DNA from: Alphaproteobacteria bacterium
GTDB taxonomy: Bacteria; Pseudomonadota; Alphaproteobacteria; Rs-D84
Direction of reading: 5' to 3'
Length of the DNA stretch: 64,000 nucleotides
Assembly (NCBI GenBank): GCA_017962125.1
Contig: JAGCVZ010000002.1
Location: forward strand, 4,492 to 68,491
Each line of letters begins with the position of its first letter. Positions within the stretch are counted from its first letter, which is position 1. A program made the translations under genes and the position numbers. Positions 4,670 to 62,233 of this stretch are shown here, piece by piece. The notes under the pieces were generated by a model. It ran no database searches and had not been told where the DNA came from. It saw only the letters and a list, made by a program, of their open reading frames with translations.

Positions 4670-6007
4670 ATGATAAACTTTTTGAAAAATTTTGTTTTGG
4701 TGTTGTTTGTCTGTATAATGATTGCAGGATGTATGGAGGCTAATAATCCATATAATACAGAAGGAATTGAATATAACACAATACAAGTTGTTGATAATCT
4801 TGTTATAGATGACAATTCTGTGCCGATTTTTCCAAAGAAAGCTGCTTTGACAACGGATACTGCACGTCGTTTTTCGATTGAATTGCCAAGACGTTGTACG
4901 GTGGATTGGGATTCTCAATCTGTGATATCTGTGGTCCCAGAAGAGAAAATAGAAATTGTAAGATTAAATGTTGGTGACCCGTTACCAGATTTAACTGTTT
5001 CGGATTACGATTTTCGAAAGCAAACTATAAAAGATGCGTTGGATAAATTACTTTCTGGAACGGATATTGCGGTCATAGAACAAGAAAAGATGTACGAAAG
5101 AATATCTGGGTCTATTGTGGGTGGAAATCTTGCGGATGCGGTGGATTTGATGGTTCATCTTGGGCGTGCATATTATTCGTATGATGCAAAACTTGGGGAA
5201 TTAAAATTGTTTAATCGTGGCAAGTGGTTGATTAAAATGCCAAGAAACGATGATATTGTTATGGCTATTTTGGATGCGATGCATGGCGCAGATGTACGAA
5301 ATGTAATCGTTGATTGGGCTGATAATACTTTGGTGTTTGAAGGTAATTATCAAACAGAGCGTGAAGTCGCAAGAATAATTTCTGATATAGCATCAAAAAA
5401 GTATGTAATGGCGTGGGATATGGATGTTTATCGTGTTTATCCGCGAACCGATAATCCAATTGTGTGGATGAATATGTTGCCCGCATTTGGTGAAAAAAAT
5501 ATAAAAATGTCTGTGCCTGGGGTTGTTGGTCGGGCTCTGGTCGTTGGACCAGAGGTAAATACAAAGACATTACAAGAGTTTTTGGCTCAACAGGCAAATG
5601 TTGTTTTGATATCTCAGGGACATTTTGTTGTGCCTGATGGTTGGCAATCTCGTTTTGATATCGGGCAATGTGGTAAAGAAGAAAGAATAGAAACAGACCT
5701 GATAGTGGGGGCAACTGCAGAGTATGTTGATTTTGCTGGCAAGGACAAGATAGATGCGAAAATTGTATTGCGCACCAGTAATGGGGAACTTTCGTCATTT
5801 TCTATTCCGTCCAGTGTCGGTGATAATTATGTCATAATTGGTATTCCGACACATTCTTTTGTGACAACCCCAGAAACATTGATAAGTCCTTTTGCAGAAC
5901 TTGTTGTGTTTATGTCGCCAAGAATAGTTTCTATTGTGAATCCCAGTGATATATCGGACAAAGCGCCATTGGTTGGTGATGAGTTACGAGAATGGTTAAA
6001 GAAATAA
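4670..6007 (+). CDS. Lipoprotein, possible PilN/BfpB-like (type IVB pilus) secretin
   Basis: Lipobox IAGC; STN-like segment (DFRKQTIKDALDKLLSGT), N-domain-like segment, beta-rich C-terminus ending ELVVFMSPRIV. Confidence 0.45.
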   Translation: MINFLKNFVLVLFVCIMIAGCMEANNPYNTEGIEYNTIQVVDNLVIDDNSVPIFPKKAALTTDTARRFSIELPRRCTVDWDSQSVISVVPEEKIEIVRLNVGDPLPDLTVSDYDFRKQTIKDALDKLLSGTDIAVIEQEKMYERISGSIVGGNLADAVDLMVHLGRAYYSYDAKLGELKLFNRGKWLIKMPRNDDIVMAILDAMHGADVRNVIVDWADNTLVFEGNYQTEREVARIISDIASKKYVMAWDMDVYRVYPRTDNPIVWMNMLPAFGEKNIKMSVPGVVGRALVVGPEVNTKTLQEFLAQQANVVLISQGHFVVPDGWQSRFDIGQCGKEERIETDLIVGATAEYVDFAGKDKIDAKIVLRTSNGELSSFSIPSSVGDNYVIIGIPTHSFVTTPETLISPFAELVVFMSPRIVSIVNPSDISDKAPLVGDELREWLKK

Positions 6008-6022
6008 GAATAGGGCAAACCG

Positions 6023-7276
6023 ATGTTTACAAAACTTGAAAGAAAAATTGCTTTTAGATACTTGGCGGCAAAGCGACGCGGGTTCGGTTCTGTGGTGTCG
6101 TGGGTGTCGCTGATAGGAATTATGTTGGGTGTTGCGACACTTATTGTCGTGATGTCTGTTATGGGCGGTTTTCACGATACGCTACTTGCACGAATTGTTG
6201 GTATGAACGGGCATGTTGTTGTTTATCACCAGGACGGCGCAATTGCAGATTATGATTTTTTGTCTGAAAAAATGATGGAAAACAAAAGTGTCGCGCGTTC
6301 GGTTTCTGCGATAGTTCCTATTGCCGAAGGTCAGGTTATGGTTACTGTAAACGGTAAGAATTCTGGCGCGATGGTTCGTGGAATTCGTATGTCTGACTTG
6401 ATAACCAAAACGAATAGCGGTGTACGCATGTATGGTCGAAATTTATCCGATATCCAAGATGGGGAATTGATAATTGGTTCAACTCTTTCTCGCAATCTTG
6501 GGGTGCATATGGGTGAAAATGTTTCGCTGGTGTCCGCTGATAATGCGACGCCTACGCCGTTTGGGACTATGCCACGGATTATGTCTTATCCGGTGATGAC
6601 ATCTTTCTTTATGGGAATGTATGAATATGATTCTGGATATATATTTATGCCATTAGTTACGGCACAAAAATATTTAAATCTTGGGGATGCGGTCACACAT
6701 ATTGATTTGTTTTTGAAAAATCCGAATGATACAGATGCGGTGCGCGACGCATTGATTGATGTTTTGCCCGATGGATATATTGTGCGCGATTGGCGTGATT
6801 TAAATCGTGGATTTGTCGGGGCGCTCCAGGTTGAATCTAATGTTATGTTTTTGATTCTGATGTTGATAGTTATTGTTGCTGCGTTTAATATAGTGTCGTC
6901 GCTTGTTATGTTAGTAAAAGATAAATCCAAAGATATCGCTGTGTTGCGGACTTTCGGCGTTTCACGACGTTCAATGATGCGTATATTTATATTGTCTGGG
7001 ACCAGTATTGGTGTTATTGGGGCGGTGTTTGGAACTATACTTGGTGTTGTGGTTGCAATTTATATTGAACCGATACGGCGGTTCTTTCAATGGGTAACGG
7101 GGCGTGATTTGTTCCCAGCGGAGTTGTATTATTTGTCAGAATTACCGTCACGTGTAGAATTTGCGAGTGTGCTTGGGATTGCATTGATTGCGATTGCGCT
7201 GGCATTCTTGGCAACAATTTATCCAGCATGGAAGGCGGCAAATACAGACCCAGTAGAGGTTTTGCGAAATGAATAG
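6023..7276 (+). CDS. Lipoprotein-releasing ABC transporter permease LolC/E
   Basis: IAFRYL, VMSVMGGF, AAFNIVSSLVMLVKDK, YPAWKAA..DPVEVLRNE. Confidence 0.95.
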   Translation: MFTKLERKIAFRYLAAKRRGFGSVVSWVSLIGIMLGVATLIVVMSVMGGFHDTLLARIVGMNGHVVVYHQDGAIADYDFLSEKMMENKSVARSVSAIVPIAEGQVMVTVNGKNSGAMVRGIRMSDLITKTNSGVRMYGRNLSDIQDGELIIGSTLSRNLGVHMGENVSLVSADNATPTPFGTMPRIMSYPVMTSFFMGMYEYDSGYIFMPLVTAQKYLNLGDAVTHIDLFLKNPNDTDAVRDALIDVLPDGYIVRDWRDLNRGFVGALQVESNVMFLILMLIVIVAAFNIVSSLVMLVKDKSKDIAVLRTFGVSRRSMMRIFILSGTSIGVIGAVFGTILGVVVAIYIEPIRRFFQWVTGRDLFPAELYYLSELPSRVEFASVLGIALIAIALAFLATIYPAWKAANTDPVEVLRNE

Positions 7277-7323
7277 AGTTATGATAAATACAAATTTACG
7301 CAATGACACAAGAGGAATGTAAT

Positions 7324-8034
7324 ATGGCATCTATATTAAATTCTTTATCAAAAGTAAAAAAGGGCGCGGTTGTCCTTTCTGTGCGTGATATAAAAAAGAC
7401 CTTTATCGAAGGTGGACAGCCTTTGCATATTTTGACCGGCGGTGGTTTTGATTTGCATCGTGGTGAAATAGTCGCGCTTGTTGGACCATCGGGTAGCGGA
7501 AAATCTACATTGTTACAATGTGTAGGGTTACTTGATAAACCATCGGGGGGCAGTATTATTGTATCGGGCACCCCAGTGCATAAAATGAATGATGATACGC
7601 GGACGATGATTCGTCGTCGGAAACTTGGTTTTGTGTACCAGCGGCATAATTTGTTGTCTGATTTTACCGCACTTGAAAATGTTATGTTGCCGATGTTGGC
7701 GGCTGGGGTGGAATCAGATGTAGCAGAACGTCGTGCGATGGATTTGTTGAAATCTGCGAACGTTGCACATCGTGCATCACATTTACCAGGACAAATGTCG
7801 GGTGGAGAACAGCAGAGGGTGGCTGTTGCACGTGCATTGGCCAATAATCCAGATATATTACTTGCCGATGAACCAACAGGCAGTTTGGATCCAAATCATG
7901 CAATTTCTGTTTTTGAATTGTTATTGGATTTAGTGCGAAAAAATAAAATGGCGATGTTATTCGTTACGCATGATATGTCACTTGCTAATCGTGCAGATCG
8001 GCGTATAACTATTAAAAACGGAACAGTTAAATAA
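7324..8034 (+). CDS. lolD: Lipoprotein-releasing ABC transporter ATPase
   Basis: GPSGSGKST, MSGGEQQRVA, LADEPTG; follows lolC/E. Confidence 0.93.
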   Translation: MASILNSLSKVKKGAVVLSVRDIKKTFIEGGQPLHILTGGGFDLHRGEIVALVGPSGSGKSTLLQCVGLLDKPSGGSIIVSGTPVHKMNDDTRTMIRRRKLGFVYQRHNLLSDFTALENVMLPMLAAGVESDVAERRAMDLLKSANVAHRASHLPGQMSGGEQQRVAVARALANNPDILLADEPTGSLDPNHAISVFELLLDLVRKNKMAMLFVTHDMSLANRADRRITIKNGTVK

Positions 8035-11470: not shown

Positions 11471-13699
11471 TTAATTGTTTTCCATTTGTGCGAGTTCGGC
11501 GCGTTTTTGTTTCAACAAGTCATTCGTTTCTTCTGTCTTTTGTTTTAACCGTTCTATCTCTTGTTCTAACCGTTCTATCTCTTGTTCTAGCAGTTTCCTG
11601 CCGGTGTCATAATCTTTTATTTTGTTATCTTTTGTGCTTTCAGGTGTGTTCGTGTTTTCCATTTCGCGATCTAACAGGTATACATTTGGCGGTGTTTCCA
11701 CAAATAACTTACCTGTTACCGCATCCTTTCTAGCAATACCACGTTCCATAACTTTTACTATTTTGTTTCCAACAATTTGTTTTTTGCAACCTTCAAGAAA
11801 ATGGGAATTAGCAAGTATTCGGCCATATGCTTGTGGATAAATATCAATTTCATACACATCGGGCGATGTCTCTGTTAGTTCAAACACGGTGTCTTCGTAT
11901 GGTGTTGATCTTACCCTACAGAGCCGCCCATTAAGTATACTGTCGGCATATAATTTCTTTTTATCTGTGTCGGTATATGTTGATTCTGGGGTTTGAAACG
12001 CTTCTTGTCTGTCATCGTTTGGGCTTTCTGTTACGTGGGAAAGCTTGGCATCGTCGTCTATGAAATCAGCATATAAAGTGTTATTTGTTGTTTGATTTTT
12101 GTCTGTGGTTGGTTGTGACGTATTGTATATTTTGGATTCCGCCATTTCGCGGGTCAATAGGTGAACATCAGGCGCCTTTTCAACAATCAGTTTGCCCATT
12201 CCGTTATCTTTTGCAATACCGCGTTTAAGAACTTTTACCACTGTTGCGCCGTTCAAAACGGTTGTCGTGCAACCGTCCAGAAAGGACGGATTGGCAAGGA
12301 TTCGTCTGTATGCCGGTTTGTAAATGTCAATTTCGTATGTGCCGGGCGATGTTTCGGTTAGTTCAAAATTAGTATATTCATCTGGTACCGGTTTGGGGCG
12401 ATATAGCTCTCCATCAATTATAGTAATGGAATATAATTTCTTTTTGGTTGTATTGTTAGCCACAGGTTCGGGATTTTGTTGTAATGTTTCCGTTTTTTCT
12501 TCGTCCAATAGATGGACTTTTAATTTTTTTTCTACGATAAATTTACCAAGGGGTGCATCCTCTCTTACCACACCAAATTCTTTGATTTTTACTATATTTC
12601 TGCCAATTACTTGTTTGTCTGTGCCTTGAAGAAAAGCCGCGGGATTACGAAGTATTCGTGGATATGCGGGTTCGTATAAACCAAGTTTATATTTGCCGTC
12701 GGGTTGTTTGGTTAGTGTAAGATTTGTGTCATCATTTGGCTTTTGTGTTACGTGGCTAAGTGTACCATCGTCTATGAAATCGGCATATAAAGTGTTATTT
12801 GTTGTTTGATTTTTGTCTGTGGTTGGTTGTGACGTATTGTATATTTTGGATTCCGCCATTTCGCGGTCAAGATGTATTATAGGTTTGTTTATTATACGAA
12901 GTTTACCATTTGATTCCATTACTGCCTTGCCAGGTTCTTGTATTTCAATGTGGTTTCCACTTCCTTGCCACATTGCACCATCAAGGAACTTTGATGGATT
13001 ACTAAGGATTCTTTGGTATGCTGGTTCATATGGAACGATTTTGTATGTTGTTCCGGATTCTTGTGTCAATACCCAGTTTGTATCACCATTTGGTTCATCT
13101 GTAGGGTTTTGTATTTCACCTTTATATGTTAAATTTGATGCATATATGACCAACGAATTTTTTTCATTTGTTTGTTTAGTTTGTATTGATTCTGAGTGCG
13201 AAAAACTTTTCTGAACTATTTGATTTAACGATTGTGCCAAAGAGTTGTCCATTTCATTAGCAAACAAAAACCTATACCGTGGAGACCATTGCCGCCAAGT
13301 ACCAAAATCACCATTTCCCACTATGTATGTAAATTCGGATAATATATTTGTATTGAACCATGATTTTAAGTCTTGTGCGAATTTTTGTTCGTCCAACAAT
13401 TTGATTCCTGGTTTTACAAAAATTGTTATGGCGGCATAGTTACTACCTGGGCGGGGGGAGCTTGCCTCGTATATTCCTGTATGGACTATTGTGTACGCAA
13501 CGGTACCGCTTGGTAATGTTTCTTTTATAAATTTTTCACCAGGTTTTGACGGGGTCTCCACATATTTTGGGTTGCCTATATGGAATCTGTCATAATAACC
13601 TTGAACTTCTGGGCGGTCGTCGCGTGTGGCGTTTGACTGTTGCCCAAGTGGACAACCATGAACTATCCATGCAAATGGTATCATTGGTTTTTCTGACAT
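11471..13699 (-). CDS. Hypothetical protein with four tandem ~95-aa domains and C-terminal coiled coil
   Basis: Motif Y.PAY.RIL.NP..FL.G occurs four times; EQEIERL repeated at the C-terminus. Confidence 0.85.
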   Translation of the reverse strand: MSEKPMIPFAWIVHGCPLGQQSNATRDDRPEVQGYYDRFHIGNPKYVETPSKPGEKFIKETLPSGTVAYTIVHTGIYEASSPRPGSNYAAITIFVKPGIKLLDEQKFAQDLKSWFNTNILSEFTYIVGNGDFGTWRQWSPRYRFLFANEMDNSLAQSLNQIVQKSFSHSESIQTKQTNEKNSLVIYASNLTYKGEIQNPTDEPNGDTNWVLTQESGTTYKIVPYEPAYQRILSNPSKFLDGAMWQGSGNHIEIQEPGKAVMESNGKLRIINKPIIHLDREMAESKIYNTSQPTTDKNQTTNNTLYADFIDDGTLSHVTQKPNDDTNLTLTKQPDGKYKLGLYEPAYPRILRNPAAFLQGTDKQVIGRNIVKIKEFGVVREDAPLGKFIVEKKLKVHLLDEEKTETLQQNPEPVANNTTKKKLYSITIIDGELYRPKPVPDEYTNFELTETSPGTYEIDIYKPAYRRILANPSFLDGCTTTVLNGATVVKVLKRGIAKDNGMGKLIVEKAPDVHLLTREMAESKIYNTSQPTTDKNQTTNNTLYADFIDDDAKLSHVTESPNDDRQEAFQTPESTYTDTDKKKLYADSILNGRLCRVRSTPYEDTVFELTETSPDVYEIDIYPQAYGRILANSHFLEGCKKQIVGNKIVKVMERGIARKDAVTGKLFVETPPNVYLLDREMENTNTPESTKDNKIKDYDTGRKLLEQEIERLEQEIERLKQKTEETNDLLKQKRAELAQMENN
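12054..12152. repeat. 99-bp intragenic direct repeat, copy 1
   Basis: Matches 12768-12866 with one mismatch. Confidence 0.9.
12768..12866. repeat. 99-bp intragenic direct repeat, copy 2
   Basis: Matches 12054-12152 with one mismatch. Confidence 0.9.
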
Positions 13700-13756
13700 T
13701 ACATTTTCCTTTGTTTTAATCGTTATTATTTTATCAGAAAATGTCTGAAATTAAAA

Positions 13757-14326
13757 TTAAATTCGTTCAGGTTTGTATATAATGTGTTTTTTGTTTACAT
13801 AGTCGCGCAGAACTTTTTCCCCAGATTTAGATTCAATGTTGCCATATACGGTGATGTTTCTGTGTTTGAATTCCTCTATCCAATTTGGTTTAAAACCTTC
13901 GTCAAAGCCAGTTATGTCTTCAACTATATTTGATGGAACGCCGAAATATATTTCTTTGATTCCGGACAACATGATGCCACCCAAACACATTATGCATGGT
14001 TCCGCCGTTACATATAAAGACAGATTGTGTGCTGATAAATCGTAAGTATGCAGTATTTCTTCGGCAGCGTGAATTGCATTCATTTCTGCGTGATTATGAC
14101 TGCATGTGTCTTTTACTACTGTGTTTGCAGTTTTGGCAATTAATTGCCCAGAAGAATCATAAATCGCGGCTAGGAAAGGTCCATAACCACGCGAAATGTA
14201 AGTTGGTAATTCGTTGTATAATTCAGTGATGATTTTTTTTGCATGGGTTAGTTTTGTATCATTGATTTTTTCATTTGTGATAATAGTATTCGAATTTTTG
14301 CGCATCTTGGTTGCTCCTGGTATCAT
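13757..14326 (-). CDS. Zinc-dependent nucleoside/guanine deaminase (CDA family)
   Basis: HAE and EPCIMC zinc motifs, GPF.AAI, GFDEG. Confidence 0.9.
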   Translation of the reverse strand: MIPGATKMRKNSNTIITNEKINDTKLTHAKKIITELYNELPTYISRGYGPFLAAIYDSSGQLIAKTANTVVKDTCSHNHAEMNAIHAAEEILHTYDLSAHNLSLYVTAEPCIMCLGGIMLSGIKEIYFGVPSNIVEDITGFDEGFKPNWIEEFKHRNITVYGNIESKSGEKVLRDYVNKKHIIYKPERI

Positions 14327-14473
14327 TTGTTTATATTATACAATTTGTTACAATAATAAACAAGTTGATTGTCGGATGATATGGCGCAACATGATGCAAG
14401 TCACGGGCTGATTTTAGAGATTGGACGAGAAATGGATAAATGCAAAAAATAAATTTAATTTGTCAAATTTAAA

Positions 14474-14767
14474 CTAATAGTGTTTTCTTTTACGCTTTTT
14501 GTGTTTTTGATAATATATAGTAAGCATCAAAACAAATATCAAAAAACAAATATCCAAAGACACAATAAATATCAGTCCTAATTCTGGTGTTTCCAGCAAT
14601 ATATACGCCATATAACATAAATCTGCGGCAATCCATGTGAACCAGTACCCTAAACTTAAATCGTCTGCAGATTTTGTTTTTAATAATTTAACAATTTGTG
14701 GCATATAAGCAACGAATTCTAGTACGGTGTAAACAGAAAGAAAAATTAAAGATATTGTCGTTTTCAT
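14474..14767 (-). CDS. PQ-loop / SemiSWEET-type small transporter (cassette cargo)
   Basis: YMPQIVKLLKTKSADDLS PQ-loop motif, three TM helices. Confidence 0.85.
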   Translation of the reverse strand: MKTTISLIFLSVYTVLEFVAYMPQIVKLLKTKSADDLSLGYWFTWIAADLCYMAYILLETPELGLIFIVSLDICFLIFVLMLTIYYQKHKKRKRKHY

Positions 14768-14831
14768 AATACAAATTATATCACAAAAACCACGAAAGTT
14801 GTAAAAAATTACTATTTTTTAAAACAAAAGA

Positions 14832-14855
14832 AAACTTGCCACGATTGGCAAGTTT
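14832..14855 (-). terminator. Junction hairpin AAACTTGCCA-CGAT-TGGCAAGTTT
   Basis: Perfect 10-bp stem with T-rich tail on the minus strand. Confidence 0.7.
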
Positions 14856-14861
14856 GGAAAC

Positions 14862-14887
14862 TGTGGTTGTGGGGTGCTGGCAAAACG
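14862..14887 (+). repeat. 26-bp inverted repeat, left of SSS transporter gene
   Basis: TGTGGTTGTGGGGTGCTGGCAAAACG, exact reverse complement of 16282-16307. Confidence 0.95.
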
Positions 14888-14903
14888 CGAGTTGAAATAG
14901 ATA

Positions 14904-14932
14904 TTGACCCCTAATACTGGTTTGTATAAAAT
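14904..14932 (+). promoter_or_regulatory. Sigma70-like promoter of SSS gene
   Basis: TTGACC-N17-TAAAAT followed by GAGGGG RBS. Confidence 0.55.
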
Positions 14933-14953
14933 TTACTCAAGAGGGGAATATAT

Positions 14954-16279
14954 ATGTTTGTGTTCTTTGTTTGTTATTTAATAATTTTGCTGGCTATTGC
15001 ATTATATGTATCAAGGAAACAGTCAATAAAAGGTTATTTATTAAATAATCGTAAAACATCAACATTTTTATTAACTTTGTCCAATGTTGCGACTTATATC
15101 GGTGCAGGTGCCACGGTTTTTGTGGTGTCTGAAATGGCACGCGGAAACTTTTTATCTTGTTTGGGGTTGGCGTTGGGAATTCCAATGTCTTTTGTCTTGT
15201 TTGGTCTTATTTCTGGAAAAATTAGAAAATGCGGAACGGATTTTAATGCGACAACAATATCTGATTTTTTCAACATAAAGTTTGGGCGACCAAATAGAAT
15301 ATTAATGTCAATTTTGCAACTGATTTATATTGCTTCTGTTATAGGAATTCAGGTTGTTGGTGTGTCATGGTTGGTTGCGCATATGTTAAATGTATCGTAT
15401 TTGTTAGCGGTTGTTTTAGTGTTTGGTGTATCAACTATTTATTCTGCTATTGGGGGATTAAAGGCGGACCTTATTACCGATGCAATACAATTTTTCATCA
15501 TAGCATTATTATTCGTTGGTTTGGGATTTTTTATACAGATATCGCCAAATTTTGGAACAGATATTATAGCGGCGTTCAGTGATATGTTTGTTTTATTTAA
15601 TAATAGCATGATTTTACCGTTTGTTCTTATATTTTTGGTTTTGTCTGTGCATTTAATTACGCAGCCAACGAATTGGCAACTTGCTTTATCAGCACAAGAT
15701 GAACATAGTATAAAAAAGTCTTGTTGGTGGTCTGCGGGGATTACTTTTGTTATTCAAATGATGGTTTTGTTCTTTGGGGTATATGCTTTTGGTACTATGG
15801 CGAATTTAAGTAATCACGACCTTGCGTTTTTTCAACTGATACAAAACACTATGCCAAAGTGGTTGGCTGGTTTAGGGTTTACAGGGTTATTGGCTATGTC
15901 AATGTCTACTTTAGATTCTGCATTTATCGCTGCATCTGCAATTATTACAGGTGAATTTAGAAATATAAAGAAAACAGGAACTGTCAGGTTGTTTACTTTA
16001 TTGTTTGGTTTGTTTGTATTCACTTTGGTTATGGTGTTTCCGTCGATAGCAACACTTGGATATTTTAGTGTTACTTGGGGGCTGATACCGTTGCCAGCAG
16101 TTTTGATTGGTATATACGGTAAAAAAACATCTGGTAAAACGATATTTTTATCTGTGTTGATACCTATGATTGTGACATTGATAGTTTATCCAATTATTGG
16201 ATTTTTGTCGGTATGTTTTATTCCGTTATTATCTGTGCTTATAATTTTTATAGGTAATAGATACATAAAACAGAAATAA
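14954..16279 (+). CDS. Sodium:solute symporter (SSS family) (cassette cargo)
   Basis: About 12-13 TM helices, ATYIGAG, GGLKADLITDAIQ, AMSMSTLDS. Confidence 0.88.
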   Translation: MFVFFVCYLIILLAIALYVSRKQSIKGYLLNNRKTSTFLLTLSNVATYIGAGATVFVVSEMARGNFLSCLGLALGIPMSFVLFGLISGKIRKCGTDFNATTISDFFNIKFGRPNRILMSILQLIYIASVIGIQVVGVSWLVAHMLNVSYLLAVVLVFGVSTIYSAIGGLKADLITDAIQFFIIALLFVGLGFFIQISPNFGTDIIAAFSDMFVLFNNSMILPFVLIFLVLSVHLITQPTNWQLALSAQDEHSIKKSCWWSAGITFVIQMMVLFFGVYAFGTMANLSNHDLAFFQLIQNTMPKWLAGLGFTGLLAMSMSTLDSAFIAASAIITGEFRNIKKTGTVRLFTLLFGLFVFTLVMVFPSIATLGYFSVTWGLIPLPAVLIGIYGKKTSGKTIFLSVLIPMIVTLIVYPIIGFLSVCFIPLLSVLIIFIGNRYIKQK

Positions 16280-16281
16280 TT

Positions 16282-16307
16282 CGTTTTGCCAGCACCCCAC
16301 AACCACA
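16282..16307 (-). repeat. 26-bp inverted repeat, right of SSS transporter gene
   Basis: CGTTTTGCCAGCACCCCACAACCACA, starting 3 bp after the stop codon. Confidence 0.95.
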
Positions 16308-16391
16308 TTGAACAGTAATGTTGAGCGGGGTAAGTTGTTATTGTAAATTCAAGCTTTTTACCAGTTCAAATGTTTTTGGCGATTTATTGAT

Positions 16392-16443
16392 AGTTCGAAA
16401 GTGTAGAAAATAACATATTTTTTCATAAATAAACTTTCGAACT
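16392..16443. repeat. att-like palindrome AGTTCGAAAGT-N30-ACTTTCGAACT
   Basis: Perfect 11-bp inverted arms; homologous to 16992, 17696 and 18788. Confidence 0.9.
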
Positions 16444-16468
16444 TACCAAAAACTTGTGTTCCAAACAA

Positions 16469-16490
16469 AAAATGCCCCGGCGGGCATTTT
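16469..16490 (-). terminator. Junction hairpin AAAATGCCC-CGGC-GGGCATTTT
   Basis: Perfect stem with T tract, 9 bp before the TGGTTG core. Confidence 0.75.
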
Positions 16491-16618
16491 GTTAACTGTG
16501 GTTGTGCTGTCTGTGCAATTCGCGAACCGAATTGTTAGAAATTGGACGAGAAATTGATGAGAAAAAAGATAAATTGAACCTATCAAATTTACATTAAAAA
16601 CATTATCAACGCGATTCT

Positions 16619-16948
16619 TTATCGTTTAGATTCTATCAACTCGTTTCGAACAACTCTTGTTTTATGCATCCTGTCTCTATGGTCAATCACGACTGTTGAA
16701 CCTTTTTCATAAAATTCTTGATATTTTTTTAATATGTTTTCAATATTACCATTTTCAATTAAATAGTGAACATCAGCGTCATACTTTATGTCGAGCGGGG
16801 AAGTAAAAAGACATACTTTTACATACCATTTCACCGCCGCAATTTCTTGATCAGTCAATGTGCGCCCCTGTCCCTTATTTTCTATACGCTTCAGCAATGA
16901 ATCTTCTACTTCTTTTGTGGCGTTTTGTAATTTTTTCTTAGCAACCAT
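16619..16948 (-). CDS. Hypothetical protein (cassette cargo)
   Basis: AAGGG RBS; 109-aa ORF between two junctions. Confidence 0.6.
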   Translation of the reverse strand: MVAKKKLQNATKEVEDSLLKRIENKGQGRTLTDQEIAAVKWYVKVCLFTSPLDIKYDADVHYLIENGNIENILKKYQEFYEKGSTVVIDHRDRMHKTRVVRNELIESKR

Positions 16949-16991
16949 AGTTTACCCTTTTTATTGTTTATGCGTACATTGTATCATAAAA

Positions 16992-17041
16992 AGTTCGAGA
17001 ATCAAAAAAATAGCACTTTTTCAAAACTAAACTTTCGAACT
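16992..17041. repeat. att-like palindrome (degenerate left arm)
   Basis: AGTTCGAGAAT-N28-ACTTTCGAACT. Confidence 0.8.
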
Positions 17042-17218
17042 CGGTGAAAGTATTTGAAACCAAACAAAATCCCGCCCTGAAACGAACGGTTGTTTATCTT
17101 GGTTATGCAGTGTGTGCAGTTCCCGAGCCGAATTATTAGAAATAGGGCAAGAGATTGATAGAGTGAAAGAAATCTCTAATCATAACAAATAAAAACGGAC
17201 AATTTGCCCGTTTTTACA

Positions 17219-17566
17219 TTATTTGTTTCTTGACATCAACTTTCTAGCCATATATCGTTTACCCCCCTCTTCACCAAATACAGTATATAACTTGTCTCTC
17301 AACTTTAACTCGCTTGACTTATATTTTTTAAACGCATCGGCCAATCTCTCATCATTAAATAAAGCATAACTTGGGCATTTTTTATTTCCGCATACATCAA
17401 ATTCCCCTTTATAGTATGGGCATACTATTTTGCCTATACCTAATATGCATAATGGTGCAAAATCAGGAGCAGAGTGGTAGTTTATTTTGGTTGTATGTTT
17501 TTTTGCCCACTGAAATTTTTTATACCGCCAATTTGTTTGTAACGTTAAACCGATAATAGTTCTCAT
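17219..17566 (-). CDS. Hypothetical Cys-containing protein (cassette cargo)
   Basis: AAGGAG RBS; 115 aa; hairpin terminator at about 17191-17216. Confidence 0.6.
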   Translation of the reverse strand: MRTIIGLTLQTNWRYKKFQWAKKHTTKINYHSAPDFAPLCILGIGKIVCPYYKGEFDVCGNKKCPSYALFNDERLADAFKKYKSSELKLRDKLYTVFGEEGGKRYMARKLMSRNK

Positions 17567-17694
17567 GTTTATACTCCTTATTGTTTACACTGTCACTTTA
17601 TTAACGATATATTATACTAATAATTATATCTGTCAACAAAAAATTTTAAAAACTATTTTTCCAATTTTTATGCAAGCATTAAAAATTTAATAAA

Positions 17695-17747
17695 GAGTTC
17701 GAAAGTTCAAAAAATTTGATATTTTCTGAGGACTAACTTTCGAACTC
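17695..17747. repeat. att-like palindrome
   Basis: GAGTTCGAAAGTT-N27-AACTTTCGAACTC, perfect 13-bp arms. Confidence 0.9.
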
Positions 17748-17804
17748 GGTGAAACACTTGCTTTTCTAACAAAAAACCGCCCTTATGGACGGTCTTGTAA
17801 ATCT

Positions 17805-17827
17805 TGGTTGTGGGATGCTGGCGATAC
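17805..17827 (+). repeat. 23-bp inverted repeat, left of methyltransferase gene
   Basis: TGGTTGTGGGATGCTGGCGATAC, exact reverse complement of 18679-18701. Confidence 0.95.
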
Positions 17828-17873
17828 GCGAGTTTTTGTGTTATAATAGTCAAAGATAAGAAAAAGGGATAAC

Positions 17874-18668
17874 ATGACAGTCAATAAACACAAAGATATT
17901 ATTATAAATAATTACACTGACTATGATGAAGATTCTCGTTTGGTTAAAGACCGTGCACATAACATGGAATATTTAACAACTATGCGTTATATTCAAAAGT
18001 TTTTGAAACCAGGGGCGAAGATACTTGAAATTGGTGCAGCAACAGGAAGGTATTCCGTCACTTTAGCAAAGATGGGTTATAATGTTACTGCTGTTGATTT
18101 GACTCCGAGATATGTTGAAATAATGAAGCGCAAATCACGCAGATTAAAAAACTTTCAATGCATGGTTGCTGATGCACTGGATTTAAGTATGTTTAAAGAT
18201 AATTCTTTTGATTTGGTTTTGAATTTTGGACCAATGTATCATTTGTTTAATCAAAAAGATAAAAATCAAGCAATCAAAGAAACTATTCGTGTAGCCAAGA
18301 AAAATGGTGTCTGTATGTTTGCATATATATCAAATGCATGTTTTATGACAGATTATGGTTTAAGACACGATAAGGTTGAATATTTGTGTTCTGTAATGGA
18401 TGATTTTGGAAAAATTCGTGATATTCCAGAAGAGATTTTTGCAACTTTTTATATAGAAAATTTCAAAAAACTTTTTATAAAAACAAAAACCAAATATATA
18501 ACGAATATAGCAACAGATGGAATTGCACCAGCTATGCGCGAATGGGTTAATCAATTGTCTAAAAAAGCGTTTGAAAAATTTTTACATTGGCATTTTATAA
18601 CATGTGAAAGGTTGGACCAACAAGGATATAGTAATCATCTGTTGTATATCTGCAAAAAATTAAAGTAA
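17874..18668 (+). CDS. Class I SAM-dependent methyltransferase (cassette cargo)
   Basis: ILEIGAATGRY, VTAVDL, ADALDLS, FGPMYHL. Confidence 0.92.
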   Translation: MTVNKHKDIIINNYTDYDEDSRLVKDRAHNMEYLTTMRYIQKFLKPGAKILEIGAATGRYSVTLAKMGYNVTAVDLTPRYVEIMKRKSRRLKNFQCMVADALDLSMFKDNSFDLVLNFGPMYHLFNQKDKNQAIKETIRVAKKNGVCMFAYISNACFMTDYGLRHDKVEYLCSVMDDFGKIRDIPEEIFATFYIENFKKLFIKTKTKYITNIATDGIAPAMREWVNQLSKKAFEKFLHWHFITCERLDQQGYSNHLLYICKKLK

Positions 18669-18678
18669 AATTTAAGTT

Positions 18679-18701
18679 GTATCGCCAGCATCCCACAACC
18701 A
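18679..18701 (-). repeat. 23-bp inverted repeat, right of methyltransferase gene
   Basis: GTATCGCCAGCATCCCACAACCA. Confidence 0.95.
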
Positions 18702-18787
18702 TAGTTAACAAAAGGACCGGTTAGAGCAGCTTTTCATTAGTTTTATAGGATTGTTGCTTGTTCGAATGTTTTTATAGTGTTATAAGC

Positions 18788-18839
18788 GGTTCGAAAGTGT
18801 TGATAGAGAGATAATTTTTCTAAAAATTACTTTTGAACT
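18788..18839. repeat. att-like palindrome
   Basis: GGTTCGAAAGT-N30-ACTTTTGAACT; flanking sequence similar to the 16392 copy. Confidence 0.85.
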
Positions 18840-18892
18840 TACCAAAGTCTTATGTTTTTGCTTTCTGGAATGCGCACGAGACCTTGATAAAA

Positions 18893-19138
18893 TTATTTCC
18901 AAAAATGTCTTTTTGCGAATGCGTATCCGGAACCTGTTTTAAGGTATTGTTCAAATTCCAATGCGGCGTCTTTGGAACTAAATGCAAAATAATTTACTAA
19001 TTCCCAAGGTTTATATTTTGCTGTATGTATTGAATATCCTGCATTATGTTGCTTTAATCGTCGTTTCAAATCATCAGTTTGCCCGATGTATTTTTGTTCT
19101 GGATGGGAAATACTTTTTATAAGATAGACGTAAAACAT
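18893..19138 (-). CDS. Small GIY-YIG nuclease family protein
   Basis: MFYVYLI...YIGQT.DLKRRL.QHN...FEQYLKTGSG; probable start at ATG 19138. Confidence 0.9.
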   Translation of the reverse strand: MFYVYLIKSISHPEQKYIGQTDDLKRRLKQHNAGYSIHTAKYKPWELVNYFAFSSKDAALEFEQYLKTGSGYAFAKRHFWK

Positions 19139-19217
19139 TTGATTCCTATTCCAGCCACACTCCGTTAAAACTATGTGTGGCGCTACTTCGCGATAACTGC
19201 TCCGTCCGTGTGGCCTG

Positions 19218-19248
19218 CCACACGAAGCGTCGCAGACGCGAAGTGTGG
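19218..19248. repeat. REP-like hairpin with GAA/GAA internal loop abutting the tRNA 3' end
   Basis: CCACAC-GAA-GCGTC-GCA-GACGC-GAA-GTGTGG. Confidence 0.65.
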
Positions 19249-19319
19249 TTGGGGCGCACGGATTCGAACCATGATAAAGAGAACCAAAATCTCTTGTCCT
19301 ACCATTAGACGACACCCCA
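19246..19319 (-). tRNA. tRNA-Gln (anticodon TTG)
   Basis: Cloverleaf: acceptor TGGGGTG/CGCCCCA, anticodon arm AGAGA-TTTTGGT-TCTCT, T-arm GGTTCGAATCC, encoded CCA. Confidence 0.96.
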
Positions 19320-19446
19320 AAAGCGGTTTTGATTATAGTCGTTTTTCGACGTTTTGCAATAATAAAATATTTTTCTTGTTTTGGACTTGATTTTTAATTA
19401 TTAAAAATTATAATGATTGTTGGTTTTAATAAAGCAGGGGGTGAAT

Positions 19447-19896
19447 ATGGCGCATAAAGAATTAGTGTCTTTGATGTGGAAAAATATATTGGCGTTTGCG
19501 AAATTGTCGGAACGTATAAATCGCAGTCAAATGTCTTTTAGTGATTATTCGCGAACACAGATGCAGTTGCTGATACGTCTGTATCTGGGGGGGCGGGTGC
19601 GCTTGAAAGATTTGGCGGCACGCGAATTTGTGCCGGCACCGAATTTATGCACGGCTTTCCGTAAGATGGAACATGATGGTTTAGTGGTGCGCGCAGTAGA
19701 TGAAAATGATCGTCGGAATACGTGGTATTCGGTCAGCGAACATGGGGTTCAGGTGGCAAATGGAATTATTGAAATGTTACACGATGCGATTGGTGCTATG
19801 TTCAAAGATATTGATAAAAAAGACGAAGAAGAATTGGTTAGGTCATTCAAATCTATGAATGAAATTCTGTCAAAAATGGAGAATAAAAATGCGTAG
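19447..19896 (+). CDS. MarR-family transcriptional regulator
   Basis: wHTH with GLVVRAVDENDRR; first gene of the efflux operon. Confidence 0.88.
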   Translation: MAHKELVSLMWKNILAFAKLSERINRSQMSFSDYSRTQMQLLIRLYLGGRVRLKDLAAREFVPAPNLCTAFRKMEHDGLVVRAVDENDRRNTWYSVSEHGVQVANGIIEMLHDAIGAMFKDIDKKDEEELVRSFKSMNEILSKMENKNA

Positions 19897-48811: not shown

Positions 48812-49892
48812 ATTCTTTCGGCATAAGGATATACATTTCGCCCTGGGCATGTTGACCGTGTGCGTATTGATACGCTTCGTCGCCTTTGCCAAAGAATATG
48901 TCGGCGCGTACGAAACCGCGTATCGCACTGCCAGTATCTTGGGCAATCATAAGGCGTCTAAATTTCTGTCCGTTCGAAAGGTTTGTATCGATGTATACGG
49001 GCAAACCCAACGTATACAGCGAATCGTCCATCGCGATACTGCGTATTTTTGAAAGAGGTGTTCCAAGTTTTCCAATTACATCTGGTGGTACAGATTCATA
49101 GAAATATACATATCTCGGATTATTATAGATTACTTCGCGTGCGAGTTTCGGATTTTTCTTTAAATGTTTCCAAACCGCATCCGCAGAATATCCGCCTTCG
49201 GGTTTTATGCCACGGTTGCGTAGTTGTTCGCCAATCGACTTGAAAGGCATATCGTTAACGGCCGCAAAGTTTAATTTTACCATTTTGCCGTCATCAAGTT
49301 TTAACATGCCGCTACCTTGGATTTGTATATTTTGAACATCGACAATGTTTGCCCAATACAGGACTTTACCGATTTTGTCTTTTACTATTTTTTCCTTTGG
49401 TACGCCACGAAAATTCTGACCGTTTGCTGGAACACCCATCAAAGGTTCATTGCATTCGGCGGTTTTTGTACGGCATGCTGGTATTACTGGTGAATAATAC
49501 CCAGTAAATGTTCCTTTGGGTGTTCCGTTGTCATTATAAATTTTATATGGTTGAAAATGTGATTCGAACCAAGCGCGGACAGTTTCGTTACTGGCACTGG
49601 CGCTGGGTAACATGTTGCATTTTTCTTCAAATAATGAGCGGTCAGGTATTATGCGACCTTTGTATTGAATTTTGGCTTTACAAGAATTGCGGAAAGCTTG
49701 GAGTGCGTATCTAACATCGTCGTCGCGCCATCCTGGCAGGTCGGAATAGGATACTCTTTTAAGATTCTCAGATGGAATGGTTGAATTATCGCCTGTGTGC
49801 GTTGGTGTAGAAACGTCGCAAGATGCTAAAATTACACCTGTGATGGCCAGTAAAAAGCCCCGGTTTATTAGTTTTATAATGTTTATTGTCAT
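48789..49892 (-). CDS. mltA: Membrane-bound lytic murein transglycosylase A
   Basis: Lipobox, FTGYY, QIQGSG, NPRYVYF, AQDTGSAIRG, RADIFFG. Confidence 0.93.
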   Translation of the reverse strand: MTINIIKLINRGFLLAITGVILASCDVSTPTHTGDNSTIPSENLKRVSYSDLPGWRDDDVRYALQAFRNSCKAKIQYKGRIIPDRSLFEEKCNMLPSASASNETVRAWFESHFQPYKIYNDNGTPKGTFTGYYSPVIPACRTKTAECNEPLMGVPANGQNFRGVPKEKIVKDKIGKVLYWANIVDVQNIQIQGSGMLKLDDGKMVKLNFAAVNDMPFKSIGEQLRNRGIKPEGGYSADAVWKHLKKNPKLAREVIYNNPRYVYFYESVPPDVIGKLGTPLSKIRSIAMDDSLYTLGLPVYIDTNLSNGQKFRRLMIAQDTGSAIRGFVRADIFFGKGDEAYQYAHGQHAQGEMYILMPKEYVYVKPK

Positions 49893-60954: not shown

Positions 60955-62233
60955 AGTGCTTTCCACCAATTTTTGTTCGCCCGCCCATTAACGGTTGGAG
61001 TTTTTTCGGAATGTTCACAGAACCATCGGCGTTTTGGTGGTTTTCAATTATTGGTACCAATGCACGGGGCACGGCGATTCCAGTATTGTTTAATGTCGCA
61101 ACAAATTTTACTTCGCCTGTTGCGTTTTCGCGATAGCGTGTGTTGGTGCGGCGTGCCTGGAACTGACCAATCGATGAACAAGAACCCAATTCCCGATACG
61201 CATTTTCTGATGGGAACCATGCTTCGACGTCGTTCATTTTTACTTTGTTAAAACCCATGTCGCCGGTGGAATTTGCAATTACGCGATATGGTAATTCAAA
61301 ATCGCCCACAACTTCGCACAGGTTGTTTAACAAAAATTCATGCATTTCGTCGCTTTCTTCGGGACGACAGAAAATATATTGTTCCACTTTGTCAAAATGG
61401 TGAAAACGAACCAGTCCGCGTGTGTCGCGACCAGCGGCACCCGCCTCTTTACGGAAACATGTGGAAAATCCAGCATATTTTATTGGTAATTTGTTTTCAG
61501 GTAAAATTTCATCAGCATGCATAGAGTTTAAAATTATTTCTGCGGTTCCCGCCAAACAACGGTCTGTTTCCGCCAGCATGAAAACATCATCATTCATAAC
61601 CGACAAATCCGAACCCATGAAATGGCCTGCATTGAATATAGTTTGTGGTTTCGTAACAGGTGGACATTCAATATATTTGAAACCTTTACTAATCAATTTT
61701 TGAATTACATATGTTTGAATTGCTAGTGATAATTCTGCCAATTCACCACACAGACAATATGTGCGTGTGCCACAAATTTCTGCGATTTTTTCTGGCATCC
61801 ACCATCCGTTCATATCCAACAATTCCCACTGGGGCCGTGGCGTGAAATCGAATTTGCGTGGTGTGCCGACCCGGCGCACTTCCACATTGGCGGAATCGTC
61901 TGCGCCAATGGGTGCATCGCTTGACGGAATTTGTGGAACGCGGTGCAAAAGGTCGTTTAACTTTGCTTCTTTTTCTGCAAGTTCTGCCAAATCATTTGCA
62001 ATCTCGATGCCGATTTGTTTTGATTTTGCAATCAATGGTGCCTTGTCTGTTGCGGTTGGAATTTCGCGCGAAATTTTATTCTTTTCTGCGGTTTTCGTTT
62101 GTGTGATTGTCTTTAATTCGCGAACGCGCACATCGAGGGATAAAATGTCATCGACAACATCCGGAAAGTTTTTTACGCGACATGCGTTCTTTACGACATC
62201 TGGGTTTTCACGAATAAATTTCATATCCAACAT
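60953..62233 (-). CDS. serS: Serine--tRNA ligase
   Basis: MLD, GTAE, CFRKEAG..G.DTRGLVR, FDKVE, ELGSCS, TLNNTG. Confidence 0.97.
   Translation of the reverse strand: MLDMKFIRENPDVVKNACRVKNFPDVVDDILSLDVRVRELKTITQTKTAEKNKISREIPTATDKAPLIAKSKQIGIEIANDLAELAEKEAKLNDLLHRVPQIPSSDAPIGADDSANVEVRRVGTPRKFDFTPRPQWELLDMNGWWMPEKIAEICGTRTYCLCGELAELSLAIQTYVIQKLISKGFKYIECPPVTKPQTIFNAGHFMGSDLSVMNDDVFMLAETDRCLAGTAEIILNSMHADEILPENKLPIKYAGFSTCFRKEAGAAGRDTRGLVRFHHFDKVEQYIFCRPEESDEMHEFLLNNLCEVVGDFELPYRVIANSTGDMGFNKVKMNDVEAWFPSENAYRELGSCSSIGQFQARRTNTRYRENATGEVKFVATLNNTGIAVPRALVPIIENHQNADGSVNIPKKLQPLMGGRTKIGGKH

Follow-up and report, generated by a model that had tools for sequence, protein, structure and literature searches.

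Integron arrays consist mostly of single-gene, functionally diverse cassettes separated by imperfect palindromes. RtT repeats are not known to carry cargo genes, and the core sites of classical invertases, Xer recombinases and Cre-type enzymes (dif, lox, hix) carry an internal dyad. For the tycheposons of Prochlorococcus, the passages at hand of the preprint report insertion on the 3' side of tRNA genes, with partial-tRNA repeats on each side (bioRxiv 10.1101/2020.12.28.424599). The modules flanked by plasmid dif (pdif) sites in Acinetobacter are described, in the sections that we draw on, as lying between inversely oriented 28-bp sites with an 11-6-11 XerC/XerD layout and an inner palindrome (PMC6449649). 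In Bacteroides fragilis, Mpi is presented in the excerpts consulted as a global serine invertase that serves invertons (PMC12632263). Here we describe a methyltransferase cassette enclosed by a short inverted repeat (IR) in an array of small gene units beside a tRNA-Gln gene. It lies in a 64,000-nucleotide stretch (the window) of an Alphaproteobacteria bacterium genome (assembly GCA_017962125.1, contig JAGCVZ010000002.1, positions 4,492 to 68,491 of the forward strand). As judged by comparison across its genus, such double-ended, tRNA-anchored cassettes form a recurrent subtype, with arms that are unusually alike and unusually changeable. A preliminary description of the locus overstates the spacing and the strict complementarity of these arms. 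We found no published description of such cassettes in the Enterousia literature within a limited full-text search.

Direct reading of the sequence showed TGGTTGTGGGATGCTGGCGATAC at 17805-17827, matched at 18679-18701 by a reverse complement without a mismatch. This perfect 23-nt IR encloses a methyltransferase open reading frame (ORF) at 17874-18668 on the + strand, just as the preliminary description had it; a sister cassette carrying a symporter has a perfect IR of 26 nt. A degenerate pattern of the arms' 18-nt core had four matches in the window versus 0.13 expected, and four were reached in none of 100 shuffles. A scan of the whole 935,647-nt assembly, limited to perfect IRs with a minimum length of 16 nt and arms separated by 200-6000 nt, returned 11 pairs, of which the methyltransferase and symporter pairs were the two longest. 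A chance origin of the IR is excluded. The two cassettes have the following parts, in which P is the palindrome and X the end-piece of the array's units:

17805-17827, + strand: left IR arm (X_L), the methyltransferase cassette's own end-piece, similar to a tRNA 3' end; repeat family D3.
17833-17847, + strand: cargo promoter with the extended -10 element TTTTTGTGTTATAAT, read directly; it begins right after the GCGAG of the left end-piece.
17874-18668, + strand: cargo gene, an S-adenosylmethionine (SAM)-dependent methyltransferase of 264 amino acids with class-I SAM methyltransferase domains (Methyltransf_11, E 6.8e-19).
18679-18701, + strand: right IR arm (X_R), an internal inverted copy of the cassette end-piece, ending in CAACCA.
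18702-18759, + strand: R-module of 58 nt, an inverted and decayed copy of the ordinary spacer and terminator module.
18760-18769, no strand: extra half-site of P, called arm a (GTTCGAATGT), with one mismatch to the P arm.
18770-18788, no strand: linker of 19 nt between arm a and P4, conserved in orthologous blocks.
18789-18838, no strand: palindrome P4 (GTTCGAAAGT-N30-ACTTTTGAAC), from sequence reading and a pattern match.
14862-16442, + strand: sister double-ended cassette with perfect 26-nt arms at 14862-14887 and 16282-16307.
Parts of the sister cassette, + strand: SSF symporter at 14954-16279, arm a at 16364-16373 and palindrome P1 at 16393-16442, from sequence reading and profile matches.

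The arms can be understood from the array in which they stand. The region 14780-19320 is periodic, and one period on the + strand consists of P, then 56-59 nt with a hairpin, then X, which starts with TGGTTG. Repeats of P, terminator and X were found at 14785-14890, 16393-16530, 16993-17130 and 17697-17833. P itself, a palindrome of 49-50 nt (GTTCGAAAGT-N29/30-ACTTTCGAAC), occupies 16393-16442, 16993-17040, 17697-17745 and 18789-18838; a further copy, decayed, lies near 14785-14834. X measures about 23-60 nt and looks like the 3' end of the neighbouring tRNA-Gln(UUG) in reverse complement (repeat family D15). Most P copies have the reverse complement of TTTTTGTGATATAAT on their left, an extended -10 element facing the genes on the minus strand (TTGATT-16-TACAAT with TG at 17005-16978 is one example). 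Read in the direction of the tRNA, an ordinary unit is thus P with its promoter, the gene, X (...CAACCA), a terminator and a spacer, and the unit borders are the 6-nt core TGGTTG/CAACCA. The TGGTTG of X_L is also where cassette homology and the joints in public contigs start, and the family D3 to which X_L belongs is one module present at 14854, 16489 and 17795.

Compared with this plan, the left arm of the methyltransferase cassette is the unit's own X, and the right arm is a second X, reversed and inside the unit. We regard this anatomy as a whole as very probable. The 58-nt R-module that follows X_R falls among the 56-59 nt that separate P and X in ordinary units, and by inspection it looks like an ordinary spacer and terminator in reverse with a decayed hairpin. 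The extra half-site, GTTCRAAWNN, sits 58 nt past CAACCA in all three cassettes first compared (the two in the window and one in the relative G011). The linker behind it measures 29 nt in the G011 cassette versus 19 nt in both window cassettes. The stretch from arm to palindrome is therefore the sum of 58 nt of inverted terminator and spacer, 10 nt of half-site and 19 nt of linker, 87 nt in all. The variant of P found in P4 adjoins tRNA-Gln in seven relatives.

This 87-nt geometry had been noted before in both cassettes and it holds: the last base of CAACCA is at 16305 in one and 18701 in the other, and GTTCGAAAGT, the palindrome arm, begins at 16393 and 18789. The shared motifs were likewise found where they had been described, GTTC(A/G)AATGTTTTT at 16364 and 18760 and GAACTTACCAAA at 16439 and 18835. 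One offset, 2396, suffices for a gap-free alignment of the right-hand blocks 16277-16460 and 18673-18856 (repeat families D1 and D11). Since these blocks are homologous without insertions or deletions, the equal spacing in the two copies of the window does not amount to two independent measurements.

The same right-hand side suggests a first alternative, in which the IR is a passive scar. The inverted X with its R-module would have arisen once or a few times, by an inverted duplication centred on P or by a reverse-oriented unit landing within a forward unit, and the arms would now decay without a present function. The perfect arms of this genome would then be young or freshly converted copies. 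The reversed X-terminator-spacer-arm module with its decayed hairpin, in which a terminator scan called no + strand terminator, agrees with such an origin. So does the large mirror arrangement around P, to which X_R, the region of P and the following X or tRNA contribute.

The borders of the units were defined by comparing genomes and contigs. Two loci from different genomes, L027 and L030, share one cassette whose cargo proteins are 92.6% identical. Their homology begins at the left TGGTTG, takes in gene, right arm, the 87 nt, P, spacer and terminator, and reaches the next TGGTTG, which belongs to the real tRNA-Gln in one genome and to an X in the other. Joints between 14863 and 19246 and between 16498 and 19246, each with six letters (TGGTTG) shared, occur in public contigs of other samples; these joints set the modules left of the symporter cassette and of the 109-amino-acid cassette directly on the tRNA. 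Another joint, 16497 to 17804, puts the methyltransferase cassette directly after the P1 module. In G011 one further unit stands between the GIY-YIG gene and the tRNA, and the X displaced there equals the symporter cassette's left arm with its GCGAG extension, letter for letter. Taken together, these borders follow a pattern of repeated insertion at the tRNA 3' end over a short shared core.

Homology with the orthologous methyltransferase cassette of another relative, G158, extends from X_L as far as the left arm of P4, and the sequences beyond are unrelated. Because the homology spans this whole distance, the 87 nt are part of one inherited block.

We then looked at recurrence. Pattern searches of 257 genomes of the genus, from which loci were taken out for comparison, yielded 36 IR pairs spread over 29 genomes, a pair being an inverted X with its nearest partner X. 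A first pattern, so loose that its control patterns matched as well, served only to pick loci. Over 23 nt the arms had no mismatch in 7 pairs, one in 4, two in 7, three in 2 and four in 6; poorer pairs had five (4 pairs), six (4), seven (1) and eight (1). At most one mismatch was thus present in 11 of the 36 pairs, and at least three of the poorest (with 6, 7 and 8 mismatches) may not be true partners. The distance from X_R to P was 87 nt in 22 of 36 pairs, 88 in 2, 58 or 59 in 5 and 97 in 1; outlying values of 132, 142, 421, 532 and 930 occurred in one pair each, and in one pair P was not found. Two biases affect these numbers. Most loci were picked by a pattern that needs a second half-site 18-36 nt after the first, which favours spacings of 87-97, and the partner arm was the best or nearest match, so that similarity tilts toward the finding. 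Among 33 cassettes with an earlier assignment of partners, the partner arms differed on average at 2.76 of 23 positions versus 5.43 for non-partners, and none of 10000 partner shuffles gave a value as low.

The 34 cargo proteins of these pairs fall into 27 clusters. The cargo points toward the R-module in 23 of 34 cases and away from it in 10, with 1 unclear, and its promoter is always flush with the inner edge of an arm.

The architecture thus recurs with diverse cargo, and the defined cassette subtype proposed in the preliminary description stands. Array anatomy and double-ended subtype together are, in our judgement, well supported. The further proposals, that the spacing and the self-complementarity of the IR are under selection, fared less well. 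The spacing of 87 nt mostly holds in the larger collection, which lends selection weak support; it is also inherited as one block, and other spacings occur. As for complementarity, partner arms are closer to each other than to other arms and some of their changes are paired. However, 25 of 36 pairs carry 2-8 mismatches, which means that the arms also drift independently, the very behaviour that had been named as speaking against the proposal.

The mismatches agree with a passive scar too, as do the lack of a dyad in the arms and of any inversion in the contigs. The comparison of related cassettes says otherwise. The methyltransferase cassettes of this genome and of G158 encode proteins with 80% amino acid identity and each has perfect 23-nt arms, and between the two genomes the arms differ at 3 positions, identically in both arms. 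Plain drift does not predict such a paired difference. In a second comparison, loci L036 and L038 share about 770 nt of cassette with about 4 differing sites (about 99.5% identity), and their arms differ at 6 of 46 positions, roughly 25-fold more than the rest. In these two loci (L036 about 5325-5894 and L038 4284-5006) the arms are local hotspots of change. Paired arm changes, fast arm change and diverse cargo in both orientations, with the promoter always flush with the arm edge, therefore point to repeated events at the arms. We consider the scar unlikely.

The cargo, too, changes its surroundings. Orthologues of the methyltransferase with 67-80% identity were found at 11 loci, only one of which lies within an IR-type frame. 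In G219 the matching promoter and gene stand among ordinary genes without arms, with homology beginning at a point just within the left arm. Three other genomes carry the gene as part of an ordinary cassette in an array of a different tRNA type. By these alignments the cargo is a discrete unit of promoter and gene. At L055 the methyltransferase gene is a member of an array with a different tRNA type (TGGCTGG... ends), and a 9-nt inverted repeat (TACACGGAC / GTCCGTGTA) brackets the gene at the inner edge of the end-piece. L055 may be a short-armed version of the double-ended architecture.

Perfect complementarity over 23 and 26 nt, together with the paired changes in the one orthologous comparison, could also mean that the arms pair in a single strand, either as fold-back DNA (attC-like, or in panhandle repair) or as a long-range RNA stem. 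Most homologous cassettes, though, tolerate 2-6 mismatches, and the loop would measure 0.5-1.9 kb. Since the cargo promoter lies inside the arms, the cargo mRNA starts without the upstream arm. A search of 13500-19600 against Rfam at E up to 1 returned the tRNA only, so no RNA family supports such a stem. We regard single-strand pairing as extremely improbable.

Could homologous recombination account for the array without a dedicated enzyme? DNA would arrive by transformation or in particles like gene transfer agents and recombine, by homologous or homology-facilitated recombination, anchored on the tRNA, X, terminator and P modules. Occasional inversion of the RecA type and gene conversion would keep the short arms alike. 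The modules are indeed conserved across the genus and flank every cargo, and the breakpoints coincide with module edges. Against this, RecA-driven conversion would have to work on very short arms (23-26 nt), the same 6-nt core lies at the junction in independent comparisons, and serine recombinases are unusually common in these 0.9-Mb genomes. An origin without an enzyme of its own is therefore improbable.

Serine recombinases were present in 128 of 151 genomes of the genus. In the genome studied here, a 199-amino-acid serine recombinase (C6:52205-52801; locus L065, 1706-2305) scored 277.4 bits versus a cut-off of 272 with NF009949, the NCBIfam equivalog model for the Mpi-family master DNA invertase. 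The gene appears to be cassette-borne because an X-like tRNA-end piece and a terminator come after it. Several Mpi-like homologues lie at contig ends or near arrays, and that of G190 is about 3 kb from a double-ended cassette. A large serine recombinase of 534 amino acids (C1:494-2098; L066) stands directly beside P and a tRNA gene. The P copy at C1:1911-1960 overlaps the end of its called ORF, and similar proteins of 526-563 amino acids are common in the genus. Only two proteins with the tyrosine recombinase domain PF00589 are encoded in the genome, neither beside the array of the window. Both match Xer-type models best (XerD and XerC). The first passes only a generic subfamily cut-off (306.3 versus 279 bits) and the second passes none, and the scores with the XerC/XerD equivalog models lie below the cut-offs (295.6 versus 329.6 bits and 288 versus 335.15 bits). 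Since Xer proteins are near-universal, their presence says little either way.

These enzymes bring us to the explanation that we favour. The X pieces would be the sites at which the cassette system recombines, and an inverted pair of X would be a slot in which cargo is exchanged or flipped. The recombinase acting on the X pieces would come from elsewhere, with an Mpi-family invertase, a large serine recombinase or XerC/XerD as candidates. The identity of the arms would be renewed by recombination events and would decay between them. That the arms form an active exchange or inversion slot is a tentative suggestion, for which the chances are slightly less than even; in this reading, putatively recombination-prone end-pieces would bracket a recurrent cargo slot. 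Taken as a whole, double-ended anatomy plus a recombination slot is on balance the probable explanation.

Several observations weigh against an active slot. Any internal dyad in the arms is at the level of chance: when each arm was examined with its flanks, the top 11-nt dyad comprised 5-6 complementary pairs, and 828 to 1994 of 2000 shuffles reached as many. A strand change was seen in none of the 15 joints listed from the contigs of four public runs, in which rare forms drop out during assembly into contigs, and orientation was kept in all five orthologous cargo pairs. Most arm pairs are imperfect, as counted above, and the loci were found by a pattern derived from the finding itself, which biases both spacing and similarity. 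No empty slot with 23-nt arms was found in the 257 genomes (searched as TGGTTGKGG-N24-54-CCMCAACCA). An Mpi-like homologue is present in 25 of 36 genomes and absent from G158, which has perfect arms, and across the 36 genomes the presence of this gene bears no clean relation to arm perfection. No recombinase was tied to the arms by any test in this analysis. The recombinase synapse and the fold-back intermediate offered as mechanisms in the preliminary description thus gained no support, the arms being without a classical dyad and the public contigs without an inverted form.

The empty-slot pattern did match in 8 of the 257 genomes, mainly to a different element of about 65 nt with 10-nt ends. 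These small elements are mostly 63-70 nt long (two, of 44 and 56 nt, look different), have the ends TGGTTGGGGG and CCCCCAACCA and occur in up to 3 copies per genome (for example G176:C8:6049-6116 and G135:C3:13165-13228). Their ends match both strands of the tRNA-Gln acceptor end, and the conserved interior contains a hairpin. By eye we also saw copies of a tRNA 3' region that look broken in the T-loop (GGATT / TCGAAC) by a GC-rich insert of about 100 nt, at L010 about 7250-7400, L009 about 7620-7790 and, in the present genome, C8 about 62100-62230 and C7 about 49640-49760.

The remaining features of the array around the cassette are:

19246-19319, - strand: tRNA-Gln(UUG), the anchor of the array (ARAGORN; Rfam tRNA, 57.7 bits); its 3' end reads TGGTTGGGG... 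on the + strand.
18893-19141, - strand: gene with a GIY-YIG domain in the tRNA-proximal unit (Pfam GIY-YIG, E 1.2e-16).
17697-17745, no strand: palindrome P3 with the promoter of a 115-amino-acid gene at 17219-17566 (-), from a pattern match and sequence reading.
17773-17788, - strand: terminator hairpin that belongs to the neighbouring module, with a T-run behind it on the - strand, read by eye and not called by the terminator scan.

Equivalent - strand terminator hairpins were called by the scan at 14832-14855, 16469-16490 and 17072-17089. At the far end of the array an ORF of 742 amino acids (11471-13699, -) had no match in Pfam and NCBIfam searches.

Arrays of this kind are not confined to the window. 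About 23 P copies stand in arrays beside tRNA genes on 9 contigs of the genome, often at contig ends; apart from the window they are on C1, C4, C6, C7, C8, C11, C14 and C15. A strict two-arm P pattern gave 15 matches versus none for a control pattern. Beyond this genome, the P pattern occurred in 18 of 24 further members of the genus, and in 1 of 16 genomes drawn from other genera of the order. On C7, X starts with the end of the tRNA of that array (TGGCAG...), and the C7 variant of P, GTTCGTAA...TTACGAAC, carries a paired change. Each P arm holds the 6-nt palindrome TTCGAA, which is T-loop-like; a -35-like hexamer lies inside P and the extended -10 just outside it. P may be an operator-promoter or a recombination site. 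When 18 P copies were folded to a consensus, pairing was confined to the arms and one position covaried (in 3 of the 18 copies), a result that does not separate a hairpin from a protein site.

How does the array compare with the systems described at the outset? The trait of a tRNA-targeting element is present, since X modules ending in the last 6 nt of the tRNA are found at every border. As in tycheposons, later arrivals push earlier ones away from the tRNA and the cargo is of the accessory or niche type, and the tycheposon family, in the passages at hand, has large serine or tyrosine recombinases (bioRxiv 10.1101/2020.12.28.424599). Here the units are single genes of 0.6-1.5 kb, without an integrase or a replication module of their own. 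The array further differs in the palindromic 50-nt promoter element of each unit and in the inverted end-piece subtype, both absent from the cited passages of the tycheposon account (bioRxiv 10.1101/2020.12.28.424599). In this and three other arrays the cargo comprises the methyltransferase, the symporter, GNATs, hydrolases, a kinase-like protein, peptidases and unknowns, and only the C1 array opens with a large serine recombinase.

The likeness to pdif modules, as far as the consulted sections describe them, lies in accessory genes between inverted short sites (28 bp there, 23-26 bp here), in a module that recurs in varied contexts and in a recombinase that the module does not encode (PMC6449649). 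The arms here are without a dyad and resemble a tRNA 3' end, and the array is chromosomal and tRNA-anchored, not on a plasmid. The arms are inverted, and the two tyrosine recombinases have Xer-type best matches below the equivalog cut-offs. Membership among Xer/dif modules is ruled out by the site architecture, the dyad of 5-6 pairs being matched by shuffles.

With integrons the array shares diverse accessory single-gene units separated by imperfect palindromes. The polarity of P, by inspection 5'-GTTCGAA...TTCGAAC-3', is opposite to that of attC (AAC...GTT), and the anchor is a tRNA gene. An integron reading was rejected on this polarity, on the cassettes' own promoters and on the lack of intI (both tyrosine recombinases score 111-113 bits versus the 265-bit integron-integrase cut-off). 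The cassettes are like invertons in that an IR brackets a segment with a promoter and that an Mpi-family invertase gene is encoded in the genome, away from its putative targets. They are unlike invertons in enclosing a whole gene with its promoter (0.5-1.9 kb) and in having arms without a dyad; no cassette was seen in two orientations in the contigs of the four runs. A transposon with terminal inverted repeats or a miniature inverted-repeat transposable element was discarded too, there being no flanking direct repeat and the left arm being the array's regular X module and not an inserted end; the check for transposases covered the PF00589 and PF00239 families. Repeats of the RtT type likewise begin with a copy of the tRNA 3' end downstream of the tRNA, and the Rfam search of 13500-19600 gave no match to a family of this type.

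A wider proposal is that gut Alphaproteobacteria with reduced genomes, in the Candidatus Enterousia group, run an integron-like gene shuffling without integron parts. Single-gene cassettes with promoters would stack at tRNA genes, and the paired tRNA-like end-pieces of double-ended exchange and inversion slots would be cut and re-matched in trans by cassette-borne serine recombinases, Mpi-family or large. We consider this version quite doubtful. With genomes of about 0.9 Mb, these bacteria nevertheless maintain, at several tRNA genes, rows of accessory genes that are hypervariable. Should the end-pieces prove to be active recombination sites, the arrays would amount to an integrase-less equivalent of integrons and tycheposons in compact form, and cassette exchange would have a natural slot in the double-ended units, with sites and candidate enzymes small enough to be tested on plasmids.

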